The notes below the pieces were generated by a model. The model saw only the letters and a program-made list of their open reading frames with translations, ran no database searches and was not told the origin of the DNA. The position numbers and the translations under genes are program-made. A stretch of DNA of 64,000 nt from a virus. Below, piece after piece: positions 1-47,149 of the stretch (its first letter is position 1; each line of letters begins with the position of its first letter). The DNA is taken from IMG/VR virus record IMGVR_UViG_3300047089_000152, positions 1 through 64,000 of that record; one strand, 5' to 3'.

Positions 1-110
1 GGTGTGGGTGGGTGGGTGGTGACGTGGGTAGGTGGGTGATGTGTGAGTGGGTGTGTGAGGTGAGTGGGTGTAGTGGGTAGGGTGGGCATGGAGTGTGGGG
101 TGGTGTAACG
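1..110 (+). repeat. G/T-rich low-complexity tract of GGGT/GTGG/GTGAG units at the window start
   Basis: Almost C-free run of ggtg/gggt units over the first ~110 nt; non-coding. Confidence 0.8.
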
Positions 111-17243: not shown

Positions 17244-17646
17244 CCAGCACAACCACGTAACCATGGACATCAAACCGCCCGGGGAGTGCCCCGCCTGCGA
17301 CGCGTACCACCGCAGCCAGGAACAGGGACACCGGGCGGAACCCCTGATCGGGGGGGAATCTCCTATCGGGGGGGAATCACGCGACGGGGGGGAAAATCAC
17401 TTCACCCAGCAGGCCATCGACGTCGCTGTCGATTACGCGCAGCGTGTCGTGCTCATCCAGTGGCTGCTGGATCTGGGCCTCGACGGTGAGGCGGACAACC
17501 TGCGTGACGCAACCGAAAGTGACGCCGCGCAAGCAGCCTACGACATCGCCGCGAACATCGTGGATATCTGCGGCAACGCGGAGCTACCTGAGCTGGCTGG
17601 CAAACTCCGTGACTGGGCTGACCAGCACGAAAAACTGGCACCGTAA
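17230..17646 (+). CDS. Hypothetical protein
   Basis: ORF with internal IGGES repeats. Confidence 0.55.
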   Translation: MALADQHNHVTMDIKPPGECPACDAYHRSQEQGHRAEPLIGGESPIGGESRDGGENHFTQQAIDVAVDYAQRVVLIQWLLDLGLDGEADNLRDATESDAAQAAYDIAANIVDICGNAELPELAGKLRDWADQHEKLAP

Positions 17647-31774: not shown

Positions 31775-32364
31775 GAGAAAGCCTGGTCATGGGGACACCG
31801 GTCAGGTTGTGCTGCTCCCGGCAGCACTGGGGTCCCGTCTGCCCGGACGGCAGGGTGATGTGCTGCGTCTGCTACGGCAGGTACGAACCTGACGAGCTGC
31901 ACGTCGACGGGACCGGTACGACGTGGGACATGTGCGCGAACTGCGGGAAGGACGTGGCCGGGTGATCTGTAAACCCTGCCGGAACCTGGACCACGACGGG
32001 TGCCCGGAGGTAGCCCGGCAGGCTGACCCGGACCTGCGTCCCATCGACAAGATCGCTGGTGCCGCGTGTTACTGCGCGCACCAGCCCGGTTCGTGCCTGC
32101 GCCCGGACCGGCAGGCAGACCCGAGGAGGGGAGCGTAGATGGCTAGGAAAATATGCCCGTACAAGTGGCCCAGCGCCGACGGGAAGCACACGCATTCCTG
32201 CAAGTACCTAGAAGGTCACAAGCACGGGCATGAGTGCCTGTGCGGGGCGCTGCCCCGGTGATGGCCACTAAGGATAAATGCTGCCGTGGATGGTACCGGT
32301 GCACGTGCGTCAAGACGTGTACCTGCCGGTGCGGGGCGTGCAGATGCTCCACGCGGAGACGCCG

Positions 32365-33396
32365 GTGAATATCCCCTCGACCGCCGAACTTCTACTCCGC
32401 GCCGACTGGGCGCGTCCCCGGTCTCGGCAGACAGCGCTGGGCATGTCCGACCTCGGTGGGTGTCGTCGCCGTGCCGGATATCAGCTGGCCGGTTACCAGC
32501 CGGAGAAACCAAGCGGATCAATTCAAGCTGTCATTGGCACGGCAGTGCATGATGCCGTGGATGCCGCGCTGAAAAAGATGCGCGAAGACGGGATCATTCC
32601 CGCCGACTCGGTCATCAACGAGGCCGTCTCGTTTGGTGGCGTCGTAGGGCACCCGGACCTTTATGTGGACGGGGTACTCAGGGATGTTAAAACTCTCGGG
32701 TATGGGGCGCAGCTGGCGAACGCGAAGCTGTACGGTCCGAAGCGGCAGCATCTGTGGCAAGTCATGACGTACGCCGCAGCCTGTATCCTCGCGGACCGGC
32801 CGGTGCGCACTGTCCAGATTGATTACCTTGTCAGGGATTCCGGTGAAAGCTGGATATGGGAAGGGCCGTTCGATTTCGGGCAGGTCCGCGAGGCGATGCA
32901 GTGGCTGGAATCGGTGCGGGAAACGCCGCTGGAATTCCTCGCCAGGGATTACGCTCCAGATTCGGCGACATGCAAAGGCTGCCCGTTCTTCAACGCCTGC
33001 TGGGACGGCCACGTGGTCGACCGTGACGAACGATCCGTCCTGCTAGTCACCGATGACGACGCGGTGCAGTGGGCGCTGCGACTGGAAGTAGCCCGGGAAC
33101 GGATCAAGACGGCGAAAGAAGAAGAAGCCCTGTCGAAAGGCGCGCTCGACGGGCTACGCCCTAACGACAAGGGAAAGGCGGAAATAAAATTGACTGGCTA
33201 CCCGAAGACTCTGCGCTGGACAGTCACTACGCGGAAGAATCTGGACACCGAAGTAATAAAGCAAGATTATGCGAGGGGCGGCATTATGCCGCCCCTCGCA
33301 TCGAGCGAAAGCGTCCGGTTGGAGTTGCTCGCGCCGCGGGATGAGGATTTATCCTGCCTATCCAATCCCGGCCGCTCCATGCCAAGCCATGCCTAG
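32365..33396 (+). CDS. Cas4-like / PD-(D/E)XK exonuclease
   Basis: SDLGGC, GTAVH, GHPD...DVKT, QVMTYA, CKGCPFFNAC (1+3 Cys). Confidence 0.85.
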   Translation: MNIPSTAELLLRADWARPRSRQTALGMSDLGGCRRRAGYQLAGYQPEKPSGSIQAVIGTAVHDAVDAALKKMREDGIIPADSVINEAVSFGGVVGHPDLYVDGVLRDVKTLGYGAQLANAKLYGPKRQHLWQVMTYAAACILADRPVRTVQIDYLVRDSGESWIWEGPFDFGQVREAMQWLESVRETPLEFLARDYAPDSATCKGCPFFNACWDGHVVDRDERSVLLVTDDDAVQWALRLEVARERIKTAKEEEALSKGALDGLRPNDKGKAEIKLTGYPKTLRWTVTTRKNLDTEVIKQDYARGGIMPPLASSESVRLELLAPRDEDLSCLSNPGRSMPSHA

Positions 33397-33413
33397 CCGC
33401 GCCTATCCCTTGC
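33350..33413 (-). ncRNA. Solo pentamer-code unit (putative guide RNA): 11 pentamers + GGCA + GGATA
   Basis: Minus strand gcaag ggata ggcgc ggcta ggcat ggctt ggcat ggagc ggccg ggatt ggata ggca ggata. Confidence 0.7.
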
Positions 33414-33420
33414 TACGTTC

Positions 33421-33450
33421 ATGGTATCATATAGGACGGGGAACGCACAA
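33421..33450 (-). promoter_or_regulatory. Putative promoter for the solo unit (TTGTGC-N18-TACCAT, extended TGn)
   Basis: -10 ends 7 nt before the first pentamer. Confidence 0.6.
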
Positions 33451-33462
33451 AAGGAGGTCGCT

Positions 33463-33690
33463 GTGGACGAGAGGGATGACTGGCTGGACCTGCCGCTGTC
33501 GGCTGAAGCGAAGCGGTTCATCGAGGCCACCCGGCAGGCCAGCATGACAGAACGCGAAACGATGATGGAATTCGCGGCCATCCTGTGCCGCTGCACTCCG
33601 TGGTATGACTACAGGAATCCGCGGGCTCCGCAAGAATCTTGCGTCGTGCATACAACAGTCATGTTTGACATGAAAGGCGGCTGGACGTGA
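33463..33690 (+). CDS. Hypothetical protein
   Basis: AAGGAGG RBS. Confidence 0.6.
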   Translation: MDERDDWLDLPLSAEAKRFIEATRQASMTERETMMEFAAILCRCTPWYDYRNPRAPQESCVVHTTVMFDMKGGWT

Positions 33691-43520: not shown

Positions 43521-44186
43521 ATGCCACCACGCAAGACCACCACAGGCGGACCAGTCCAGCTCACCAGGCTGGCAGAAGAAGTCGCCCAAATCCACATCGC
43601 CGGGGCTACGCCACTTATTATTCATAAATGGTCGGAAAAGGCGCTCAACCAGATGCGGATCGCCCAGTCCGGGGCAATTAAGCCGCCCCGCGAACCCAAG
43701 AACGCCGAAGAAAACGCCCACGCGGCAACATACTGGGTCGACGTCGCCGAGACGATCCCCGGCATCCCCAGCGTCTCATTCAAGGCCGCCATGGTCGGAG
43801 CCTGCCGGTTCTTCGACGGCCTCCCCATGACGACAGCAAAATTGCTGTTCTTCGTCGACGGGGTCGTCAGCGAAGCCAAGGGCGACGCGCCAGCACGCGA
43901 CCTGCTCGTCCCGATTATCTCCGGCCCTGGGGAAATGCGGGAAGACACCCCGCGCAACGACAACGGAAACCCGGACCTCCGGTACAGGAATCAGTTCTTC
44001 CCGTGGAAAGCCGTACTCAACGTGCGGTTCATGCCCGCGAAGATCGCCCCCGAATCCGTCATCGCGCTAGCTGACGCCGCCGGTCGTGGCGGTGTCGGAG
44101 AATGGCGTCCATCCGCACCGAAAAGCGCGACTGGCACATACGGCCAGTTTCGTGTCATCACCCGGAAGGAATGGGAGTCGGCCTAA
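43521..44186 (+). CDS. Stand-alone RAMP/Cas7-like RNA-binding protein (Vipr-like effector)
   Basis: IHIAGATPLIIH (first RRM strand), PGIPSVSFKAAM (cf. Cas7/Csm3 PxIPGSSLKG), C-terminal G-loop GVGEWRP...GTYGQFRV; flanked by pentamer arrays. Confidence 0.75.
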   Translation: MPPRKTTTGGPVQLTRLAEEVAQIHIAGATPLIIHKWSEKALNQMRIAQSGAIKPPREPKNAEENAHAATYWVDVAETIPGIPSVSFKAAMVGACRFFDGLPMTTAKLLFFVDGVVSEAKGDAPARDLLVPIISGPGEMREDTPRNDNGNPDLRYRNQFFPWKAVLNVRFMPAKIAPESVIALADAAGRGGVGEWRPSAPKSATGTYGQFRVITRKEWESA

Positions 44187-44794: not shown

Positions 44795-46073
44795 GGAGTG
44801 GAGGGGCAGGGACTGTCGTGGCAAGGAACGGCAGGGCACGGAGTGGATTGGCAGGATAGGCTCGGCGCGGCCAGGCGGGGAGCGTTTCGGAGTGGCATGG
44901 ATTGGCTGGGACTGGCAGTATCGGATCGCAGTGGTCAGGGTAGGCAAGGCCCGGCCAGGCGGGGCTCGGTATGGCCTGCACTGGCGGGGAACGCAATGGA
45001 GTGGCAGGACCGGTGTGGAATGGCTGGGACGGGAACGGCGCGGTAGGGAATGGAGTGGCAGGAACGGTGGGGCCGGGCGCGGCGCGGCTAGGCTCGGCGC
45101 GGACGGGCATGGATTGGCTGGGCAGGACAGGATCGGAGAGCAGGGGGCTGGCGCGGCATGGCACGGAGAGGCAGGAGAGGAACGGTCGGGACAGGAGCGG
45201 CAAGGAGCGCACCGGCAGGCAGCGGCAGGGAATGGCATGGAACGGACTGGATTGGCAGGACAGGACCGGCATGGCCAGGAGGGGCATGTCCTGGAATGGA
45301 ATGGCAGGAATGGCTGGGTACGGCGGGGCCGGGCGAGCATTGGACAGGACCGGCAGTCGCGGAAGGGCTCGGCAGGGACCGGATTGCAGCGGCGAGGATG
45401 GGCTAGGCAGGAGCGGAACGGCAGGGCATGGCCTGGATCGGAGCGGCTGGGCAGGATAGGCATGGATCGGCCTGGGTAGGCAAGGAGGGGCTGGGACGGG
45501 ACCGGATTGGCAGGGCAGCAGTGGAGAGGCAAGCCGTGCAATGGCGGGGCGGGGCGTGGCATGGACTGGACCGGCAGGACTGGACTGGACTGGATTGGAG
45601 AGCAGGGCAGTGGCAGGGATCGTAGGGGTTCGGACGGGCAGGTTAGGCTTGGACGGGCTAGGCGTGGCATGGGCCGGCAAGGAACGGCTCGGAGCGGCAG
45701 GGATTGGCACGGCTCGGAGTGGCAGGACCGGACGGGTACGACGTGGCGTGGCTGGCATTGGCAAGGACTGGCAGGAGTGGATTGGCAGGGCCGGGCTTGG
45801 CATGGCGTGGCTGGGAATGGCGTGGCAGGACAGGTGGGGCTTGGCGGGCCGGGGATCGGCACGGATGGGCATGGCATGGCCCGGTAGGGCATGGCAGCAT
45901 TGGACTGGACCGGACCGGCAAGGCTTGGCTTGGCTGGGATCGGATGGGAACGGCAGGAGCGGAGCGGACTGTCGTGGCATGGCATGGCCTGGCGTGGCGC
46001 GGATCGGACGGGCAGGATAGGTCGGGCGTGGAATGGAACGGACGGGCTGGGCATGGAACGGCAGGATAGGAGT
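44795..46073 (+). ncRNA. Main pentamer-code array: 21 units of 8-17 G(G)N-NN pentamers, each closed by GGCA (putative multi-guide RNA precursor)
   Basis: 44795-46063 is exactly 237x5 + 21x4 nt; GGCA marks at 44850, 44914, 45003, 45057, 45121, 45170, 45254, 45303, 45352, 45406, 45450, 45514, 45573, 45637, 45721, 45770, 45824, 45893, 45952, 46011, 46060. Confidence 0.85.
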
Positions 46074-46130: not shown

Positions 46131-46283
46131 ATGATCTTGTGCTCGTGCGGCCATCCTGCGGTCGAGCATGACCTGAACCGTTCGGAGACTAAGCGAACAG
46201 TTTGCCTGACCACCGAACGGACTACGAAATGTCCGTGCGTGCTATATTCACCAGACCTTCGTGATACACTAGAGGTACAATGA
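46131..46283 (+). CDS. Small Cys/His protein
   Basis: CSCGH...H...C...CPC. Confidence 0.45.
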   Translation: MILCSCGHPAVEHDLNRSETKRTVCLTTERTTKCPCVLYSPDLRDTLEVQ

Positions 46284-47149
46284 ACGAGACCATAGAACGA
46301 GAAGACCGCAGGGCCGTCACCGCGCTCACCTCCGGGGAAAACGCCACGAAGGTCACCGTCAAAACAAGCGACGGCAACTACGAAGAACGACAGCTAACCG
46401 TCCACGGGCTCGCACGGCTGATTCCCGTGATCGCACTGGGCGACATGGACCGGCTGATAGACGACGTGCGCGAACACGGCGTCCTCGAACCCCTGATCAT
46501 GTTCCAGGGACAAGTCCTTGACGGACGCAACCGGCTCGCCGTAGCTTCGGTCGTCGGCGTACCCGTGCAGCTCACCGAATTCGACGGAGACGAAGCCGCA
46601 GCCAGAAACTTCGTCTGGTCCGCGAACGCTGCGAGGCGGCACCTGTCCGTCCCCCAGATCGCGCTGGCCGCTGAACGGTTCGGTTTCGTCGACGCCGCCA
46701 AAGCCGAAGCAGGCCCCGACGACCCCAACCTGGATATCCGCTCGACGGTCGCACCATGGGCGCGAATCGCCGCGCGAAAGGTCGGTGCGATCACCCCGGC
46801 TACACTGGAACGGTTCCAGCAAGCCAGGATCCCCGAGGCACCCGACACGATGCGCCGGGTCGATTCCGGTGAGATCCGCCGGGTCGACGTCGCGGTCAAG
46901 GAAGCGGTCGCGGAGCGGACCGTGCTCACCGGCCGTCTCATCCAGGTTCCACCCCCGGTTGCGCGTACCGCGTGGGACCGGCTGGGCTGCGCGCGGGGTG
47001 ACGTTCTCGCCGCGGAACGCGCCATCCTGGCAGGGGACTGGGGTGGGATGGAAAGGGACCAGTTCGCTGTCCGCGCCCGTGAAATCCAGGGAGCCCTGAT
47101 CAGGATTCAGAATTTGTATCGTTATGGATCGGGCGGCAGGACCGGTTAG
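46280..47149 (+). CDS. ParB-like N-terminal domain protein
   Basis: DVREHGVLEPL...LDGRNRL...FVWSANAARRHLS. Confidence 0.8.
   Translation: MNETIEREDRRAVTALTSGENATKVTVKTSDGNYEERQLTVHGLARLIPVIALGDMDRLIDDVREHGVLEPLIMFQGQVLDGRNRLAVASVVGVPVQLTEFDGDEAAARNFVWSANAARRHLSVPQIALAAERFGFVDAAKAEAGPDDPNLDIRSTVAPWARIAARKVGAITPATLERFQQARIPEAPDTMRRVDSGEIRRVDVAVKEAVAERTVLTGRLIQVPPPVARTAWDRLGCARGDVLAAERAILAGDWGGMERDQFAVRAREIQGALIRIQNLYRYGSGGRTG

Follow-up and report, generated by a model that had tools for sequence, protein, structure and literature searches.

A probable solo vrRNA in a variable slot beside the Cas4-like nuclease gene of a large high-G+C phage

The stretch of DNA considered here, referred to below as the window, comprises the first 64 kb of a 104,150-bp virus record with 63% G+C (IMG/VR record IMGVR_UViG_3300047089_000152). 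In the gap between its gene for a Cas4-like exonuclease and a conserved gene for a 75-aa protein lies, on the - strand, a tract of 11 five-base units (33413..33359) that is very likely a solo vrRNA, i.e., a guide standing alone, of the VIPR system encoded by the same phage. VIPR, published in 2026, is a CRISPR-like RNA-guided DNA silencer in which a minimal Cas7-like protein, Vipr, is combined with an accessory gene and with vrRNAs built from GGY/NN pentamers (bioRxiv 10.64898/2026.04.26.720920). The NN pairs of a vrRNA read double-stranded DNA with every third base skipped and with no need for a protospacer adjacent motif, and Vipr binding represses transcription on either strand; the skip rule and solo vrRNAs are described in the VIPR papers (10.64898/2026.04.26.720920, 10.64898/2026.04.26.720927, 10.64898/2026.10.15.759431). 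By sequence comparison, the guide at 33413..33359 finds its best match in a family of small genes that occupy the same slot in related phages, and not in its own genome. The full explanation, namely a solo vrRNA that is directed against this small gene and has replaced it in place, is one that we regard as moderately probable. Solo vrRNAs are themselves a known kind of system; that a guide should replace the gene that it best matches would be the new twist, and this has moderate support.

The guide cassette and the VIPR system of this phage

The expected loader of the guide is a 221-aa protein encoded at 43521..44186 on the + strand. Its single match in a PDB sequence search is the Vipr protein of SUSP1 (E=0.56), it has 607 homologues, and the top Foldseek matches of its AlphaFold2 model (pLDDT 86) are all RAMPs of the Csm3/Cas7/Cmr4-6 kind (E ~1e-5 to 1e-3); judged by this predicted Cas7-like RAMP fold, it is a Vipr candidate. 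On the same strand lies the main staggered vrRNA array of 1.27 kb (44795..46068), which has the same unit grammar and GGCA punctuation as the solo guide, and whose triplets include 92 GGC and 89 GGA; the guide grammar is present in 21 units beside the RAMP gene. Several short solo units are found in intergenic gaps of this genome, and the one at 33413..33359 forms a self-contained cassette between two unrelated + strand genes; it lies on the strand opposite to vipr and 10 kb upstream. It is the unit grammar, together with the RAMP fold of the 43521-44186 protein, that makes this unit very probably a solo vrRNA of a VIPR-positive phage. Two other readings of the pentamers, as a centromere or ParB site and in terms of a ring protein (TRAP-like), were dropped given the VIPR papers and the RAMP fold. 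Directly after the main array, the open reading frame (ORF) at 46280-47149 looks ParB/sulfiredoxin-like by eye and has no match in a Pfam search; it is not VIPR-specific, since a 67%-identical homologue is present in G001, a sister phage without VIPR.

Read 5' to 3' on the - strand, the units of the guide are GCAAG GGATA GGCGC GGCTA GGCAT GGCTT GGCAT GGAGC GGCCG GGATT GGATA, i.e., six GGC, four GGA and one GCA triplets in an unbroken 5-nt register, with AG TA GC TA AT TT AT GC CG TT TA as the variable NN string. They are followed by the 3' punctuation GGCA (33358..33355) and GGATA (33354..33350). Such a structure stands out clearly from background: the window contains 79 matches to a GGNNN pattern of seven units, versus 0.00 in 100 shuffles, and GGCAGGATA occurs six times versus 0.27 expected, namely in this guide (33350..33358), in the 62809 unit, three times within the main array and at the end of that array (46060-46068). 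GGCAGG ends every solo, and GGCA the array units. The 62749 solo shares with this guide not only the GGCAGGATA end but also a first pentamer of the GCA-NN type, and GCA-first units are present within the main array as well. As to what characterizes vrRNAs, the 5-nt unit, a fixed triplet plus a hypervariable NN, is called for at least four times in tandem and is present 11 times in this tract, which also has the shared conserved 3' end (GGCA/GGCAGG, GGCAGGATA). The canonical GGY, with a pyrimidine at position 3, describes neither this guide nor the main array, in both of which position 3 is C or A; the VIPR papers also report staggered arrays with a one-base overlap, NNNGG and other non-GGY consensuses.

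An earlier note on this DNA, made from the sequence alone, had described on the - strand TTGTGC-N18-TACCAT, followed 7 nt later by 11 pentamers and by GGCA GGATA; this is indeed how 33450..33350 reads, and the NN string and the features shared with the 62749 unit and the main array are likewise as it gave them. The -35-like hexamer TTGTGC (33450..33445) is weak and adjoins the ribosome-binding site of the + strand gene for the 75-aa protein, TACCAT follows 18 nt later (33426..33421), and a consensus sigma-70 scan made no call for this pair. Better supported as a promoter feature is the extended -10-like TGATACCAT (33421..33429, - strand), which TATGAT (33431..33426) overlaps: sequences of the form TGnTAnnnT are found 7-19 nt upstream of the first unit in five solo cassettes, this one included, a sixth having TATAAT. 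Between the -10-like element and the guide lies a predicted short 5' leader of 7 nt, GAACGTA (33414..33420). On the other side, a spacer (33302..33349) antisense to the conserved last nuclease codons (SESVRLELLAPRDED) separates the guide from a hairpin (33269..33301) whose 15-bp stem is perfectly paired and whose loop measures 3 nt; a T-rich stretch comes next. This hairpin, about 50 nt downstream of the guide, is terminator-like on the - strand only, and strong hairpins follow four of the solos, again including this one. It lies within the nuclease codons YARGGIMPPLAS, which specify Ile-Met in this phage versus Ser/Ala-Lys/Gln in relatives. The hairpin was also considered as a mark of guide-bearing genomes only; in several sisters these codons also contain hairpins, if weaker or imperfect ones, and it is therefore not claimed to have evolved for the guide. 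An Rfam search gave no match. Taken together, independent transcription of the guide from its own extended -10, with a terminator-like hairpin downstream, is plausible from the arrangement of these signals.

A variable slot downstream of the nuclease gene

The gene on the left of the cassette (32278..33396, + strand) comes after a RecT-like gene and encodes a Cas4-like PD-(D/E)XK exonuclease, as identified by Pfam, PHROG and an alignment of homologues, with invariant cysteines at positions 62, 232, 235 and 241. Close relatives of the nuclease in IMG/VR were not found by a single-protein query; an alignment query did find relatives. As listed, the ORF starts about 22 codons upstream of the starts of all homologues, and translation probably begins at the ATG at 32344. 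Its end is equally peculiar: the ORF ends in APRDEDLSCLSNPGRSMPSHA and runs for its last 15 codons (33349-33393) over the guide unit. The 118 homologues, which are mostly 327-334 aa long, mostly end 2-3 residues past LELLAPRDE, which places the end of the conserved nuclease protein at about 33348; the 15-residue tail is therefore not conserved protein. These 15 extra residues (LSCLSNPGRSMPSHA) are the guide read backwards, as the earlier note had recognized for the last residues of the nuclease, and the alignment of homologues that it had put forward as a test of its proposal of an inserted guide favors insertion. From this comparison, the last 15 codons of the gene are best described as read-through of the guide cassette, and the tail should be treated in annotation as an artefact of an overlapping RNA gene. 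A nuclease homologue that is 79% identical, P0002 from a Logan contig, has a Pro/Ser-rich tail of 40 residues that also starts with LSC; this tail may correspond to another antisense pentamer array with a different guide.

That the tail would be a genuine coding end of the nuclease, or the repeat a DNA-level site for a protein, so that there would be no RNA gene at all, is the least probable of the alternatives. The ORF does run through the repeat, and the gene judged ParB-like by eye adjoins the main array; against this, the tail is missing from most nuclease homologues, Pfam finds no match in the ParB-like gene, and the same grammar recurs in the units beside the RAMP gene and fits a published class of RNA.

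On the right, the gap is bounded, here and in sisters, by the conserved gene for the 75-aa protein (33463..33690, + strand), which has AAGGAGG as its ribosome-binding site and a GTG start. Sister loci were collected by alignment-based searches of IMG/VR and of JGI metagenomes, and in every one that has both flanks the nuclease gene is followed by the 75-aa gene, with a slot of varying content between them. The slot is empty (17-20 nt) in six loci (L086, L087, L088, L089, L125 and L136); in eight others (L009, L082, L084, L090, L111, L124, L126 and L130) it contains, on the - strand, a gene of 74-98 aa, referred to below as the small slot gene. One locus has an HNH-like ORF (L085) and one has another ORF (L116). 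In the phage studied here, the slot is a 118-nt gap that contains the guide cassette, on the - strand and hence in the same orientation as the small gene. Both the missing tail in homologues and the variable slot in sisters bear out the proposal that the guide was inserted. The ORF of L085 (L085:10975-11215), small and on the + strand, has the CxxC...H...CxxCH spacing and thus the look of an HNH homing endonuclease, so that the slot is open to selfish or accessory genes in general.

The flanks of the cassette resemble those of sisters that have the small slot gene, and we infer from this that the guide has taken the place of the gene body, with the position of the promoter and the stop codon kept. 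More precisely, TGATACCAT aligns with the TGGTATGAT/TGGTAGGAT promoter of the small slot gene in sisters, and a TAA (33351..33349) is located at the exact position of its stop codon in L009, L111 and L082. The 5' leader and its flanking bases, ATGAACGTAGCA, are like the first four slot-gene codons of L111 (ATGACAGTAGCA), with 12 of 14 bases in common; these four codons were thus apparently kept in the cassette.

The earlier note also speculated that the adjacent RecT/Cas4-like pair could have a role in making or moving units. This finds no support in G001 (97% complete) and G003, which have both genes and no vipr/vap homologue, and in which only short GG runs of 6-7 units, and no guide array, are found.

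The small slot gene as candidate target

Potential targets on both strands were scored, as in the VIPR papers, by how many of the 22 informative positions are identical to the guide in the guide sense, a single wildcard separating successive pairs. Two other solos served as positive controls: the 47139 solo scores 18/20 right beside itself, and the 79506 solo (79506-79570) scores 22/24 in the sister G001 (at G001 44743) and 20/24 in its own genome. The latter guide thereby fits the rival allele of G001 better than the neighboring copy in its own genome, which constitutes an independent case.

On its own genome, the guide at 33413..33359 has a best score over 104 kb of 14/22, the same as the shuffled-guide null; for DNA up to 2.5 kb away it is 13/22. 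Among sister loci (399 kb from the metagenome scan), the top scores are 17/22 in L090 and 16/22 in L082 and L111; L084 is one of four loci tied for the next score, 15/22. The matches in L090, L082, L111 and L084 share one location, the codons TDT-V-N-R-A-x-Q-x-Y-A-Y-x of the small slot gene, and all skips fall on wobble bases. Decoded in this register, the guide reads Y-(N/K)-R-A-(I/M)-(N/K)-(I/M)-Y-A-Y-L, and against the family-invariant NRA and YAY codons it is identical at 12 of 12 positions. Skips aligned with wobble bases over invariant codons are the targeting pattern described by the VIPR authors. With the five slot genes known at that point, a restriction set a priori, shuffled guides gave P(max >= 17) = 0.0004, and the other 22-position guides of this phage reach at most 13/22 on slot genes. 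Family alleles in other high-G+C IMG/VR phages extend the match to 18/22 (82%, versus a published cut-off of 80%) at four loci, L140/L147, L150 and L154, which represent three distinct allele sequences. The significance of the match comes from its location, its wobble register and its consistency across the family, and not from the score alone.

These coding matches also bear on the proposal, made in the earlier note, that the guide is aimed at promoter DNA. Part of its basis holds, in that the NN string is AT-rich: at 32% G+C it is the second lowest among 26 guides scored in this genome. It is not an outlier, the range being 29-69% and the mean 47%, and the composition is due to its spelling positions 1 and 2 of Tyr/Asn/Ile/Leu codons. 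The aim itself finds no support in the best matches, which are in coding sequence with skips on wobble positions, and the AT-richness does not argue for it either, as the 79506 solo, at 29% G+C, has a clear match in coding sequence.

The small slot gene belongs to a family of 74-98 aa proteins from high-G+C phages with a conserved TDT(V/I)NRAxQxYAY helix. PHROG gives only a weak match to a family of unknown function, and a profile search a weak one to a CopG chain (7ak7_C, E=0.19). An AlphaFold2 monomer model consists of two helices and a C-terminal hairpin, for which the best Foldseek match is HU, also weak (E=0.27); regulators of the ribbon-helix-helix class (CopG/Arc/MetJ) have an N-terminal beta-strand and two helices. 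The gene product is at most a putative small DNA-binding protein. A homologue was not found in the present record, whose completeness is estimated at 81% by CheckV (tblastn E > 0.5).

Several observations weigh against the small slot gene as the target that the guide has replaced. The exact gapped pattern of all 11 units has no match in IMG/VR; units 2-11 have none in JGI metagenomes and a single one in 185,579 species genomes, in an AT-rich Ferruginibacter metagenome-assembled genome, about the chance expectation. A relaxed allele pattern, NRAI..YAYL, was not matched either, and no allele of the family scores above 18/22 among those searched. In every known allele, the guide mismatches a near-invariant Gln codon as well as the first codon of the site. 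Over 963 kb, 10% of shuffled guides attain a score of 17/22. The pattern that retrieved the 18/22 alleles had part of the site built in, and these alleles are without an adjoining nuclease gene in the DNA fetched. The small slot gene has no Pfam match, and the in-place replacement stands on short similarities, i.e., the start bases shared with L111 and the position of TAA.

Some of the same data leave room for a functional solo vrRNA whose real target is elsewhere, in an unsampled phage, a prophage, a plasmid or a host gene, the likeness to the slot gene then being coincidental. The best slot-gene match is only 77-82%, the lower value, 17/22, being within reach of the shuffled guides mentioned above; five related virus records scanned with up to 3 mismatches contain no match, i.e., nothing at or above 19/22; and three of the seven solos scored, this guide included, have no above-chance match in their own genome. 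What speaks against coincidence is that the top matches all fall on orthologous codons of the very gene that occupies this slot in sisters, where they are wobble-aligned and perfect on the invariant codons. In addition, the partial exact matches in IMG/VR are all in unrelated contigs of 28-44% G+C: eight-unit sub-patterns retrieved 38 such loci, with a best score of 19/22, which were judged to be due to chance. A target elsewhere is thus possible, if rather unlikely, and is the alternative that survives best.

Possible mode of action and relation to known systems

If the guide is a solo vrRNA directed against the small slot gene, it would be made as a - strand transcript and taken up by Vipr, the gene for which lies 10 kb away. 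Polymerized on the guide, Vipr would grip the GGC/GGA triplets with its protomers and leave the 11 NN pairs exposed for pairing with DNA, every third base being skipped. In a phage that co-infects the cell or already resides in it, the complex would sit on the NRA..YAY codons of the small gene and block transcription there. As Vipr represses on either strand and the site would lie inside the + strand operon of the rival (RecT, nuclease, 75-aa gene), such a roadblock could affect the downstream genes too. The guide would be in the place of its target, so that self-targeting would be impossible, and a recombinant that regains the small gene would lose the guide. Transcription, loading by Vipr, silencing and in-place replacement are all inferred parts of this scheme.

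A bolder version is that the guide and the small gene are alternative alleles, the guide allele actively displacing the gene allele as a nuclease-free RNA-guided homing element. In a mixed infection, the roadblock or R-loop at the slot gene of the rival would silence the operon and favor recombinational repair from the guide-bearing genome, thereby spreading the cassette. We consider this unlikely; if true, it would explain solo guides that lie beside or in place of the genes they recognize.

It is somewhat less likely still that the cassette is a decaying relic, i.e., the remains, in an insertion hot spot, of a vrRNA or of part of an array, no longer expressed or loaded. Its degenerate first unit, with GCA instead of GG, and its weak -35, which the consensus scan did not call, would fit such a relic. 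A decaying sequence would fit poorly with the unbroken 5-nt register over 11 units, the GGCAGGATA end identical to that of the main array, and the presence of both the 15-bp hairpin, which is perfect, and an extended -10 like that of other solos; furthermore, GCA-first units also exist inside the main array. The probability is lower again for self-regulation, whether by binding of the guide to promoter DNA, to which its AT-rich NN string might point, or by antisense pairing with the 3' end of the nuclease mRNA, since the transcript would be complementary to its last ~45 codons. The overlap with the nuclease gene is explained more simply by a lost stop codon, neither the 104-kb record as a whole nor the DNA up to 2.5 kb from the guide contains an above-chance gapped self-match, and published VIPR systems avoid self-targets (VIPR papers).

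Should the target and the replacement be upheld along with the solo vrRNA itself, a guide in the place of its target would provide built-in discrimination between self and non-self, with the weapon linked to immunity, and a simple model of how guide genes are placed and inherited. A small, widespread family of phage genes would then appear as a worthwhile target in competition between phages. VIPR was described in 2026 mainly in phages of enterobacteria and Pseudomonas, while the host of this cassette is a large high-G+C soil phage, which spreads single guides through its genome.

Three features of sisters and of the window are mentioned for completeness. The empty-slot sister L086 has its own, different VIPR locus (L086:18754-20481), in which a distant homologue of Vipr (212 aa; hhalign 89%, E 2e-6) and its partner of 226 aa stand between canonical GGY (GGT/GGC) arrays; the guides of these arrays score nothing above chance on the present genome. 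The beginning of the window (1-102) is made of GTGG/GTGGGT-rich degenerate tandem repeats with periods of 4, 17 and 49, which may be a genome-end feature, and at 17333-17394 an 18-nt unit, GGGGGGAATCCCCTATCG, is repeated 3.4 times.

Among known systems, the closest in grammar is the staggered-array VIPR (10.64898/2026.04.26.720920, fig. S18; structure in 10.64898/2026.04.26.720927). In both, the units are five bases long, with a fixed triplet before the variable NN; the register shifts by one base where a unit ends (GGCA|G); the array is accompanied by a minimal Cas7-like vipr and a partner gene; and the one-base-skip reading lines up with the wobble positions of codons. They differ at position 3 of the triplet, C/A here versus C/T there, and in the location of this guide, 10 kb from vipr and with promoter-like and terminator-like signals of its own. 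Nor is a pseudoknot tail resembling that of type II exemplars seen here, no search having been aimed at one.

As to the placement of the guide, the nearest precedent is found in VIPR-null SUSP1-like phages, where solo vrRNAs replace the deleted vipr-vap1 and target the vipr gene of relatives (10.64898/2026.10.15.759431, section 8). In both cases a lone guide lies at the locus of a gene that it recognizes in relatives, is wobble-aligned on conserved codons and scores lower on its own genome than on rivals. Unlike those phages, the present one retains its VIPR system, and the gene apparently replaced and targeted is an unrelated small accessory gene of a recombination module; one small ORF would have been replaced here, versus a 1.1-kb deletion that left pre-existing guides there. 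Another precedent is that of satellite-encoded solo vrRNAs, which redirect Vipr to decoy repeats of the host (10.64898/2026.10.15.759431, section 7). These are also stand-alone vrRNAs away from the vipr gene, but they are carried by the targeted parasite and aimed at multi-copy host sequences, whereas the guide described here is carried by the VIPR owner and has neither a multi-copy target nor a self target.

Beyond VIPR, viruses also carry CRISPR mini-arrays or solitary repeat units that are aimed at related viruses and have contiguous spacers between repeats. These are likewise minimal guide cassettes within a virus, apparently serving virus-virus competition, with another class of RNA and another effector. 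A last parallel is with free-standing homing endonuclease genes, from which the present cassette differs in that, as far as known, no nuclease is involved, VIPR of this kind being a binder and silencer. Like the cassette, those genes occupy variable slots between conserved phage genes and act on the allele that lacks them, and an HNH-like ORF is found in this very slot in L085.

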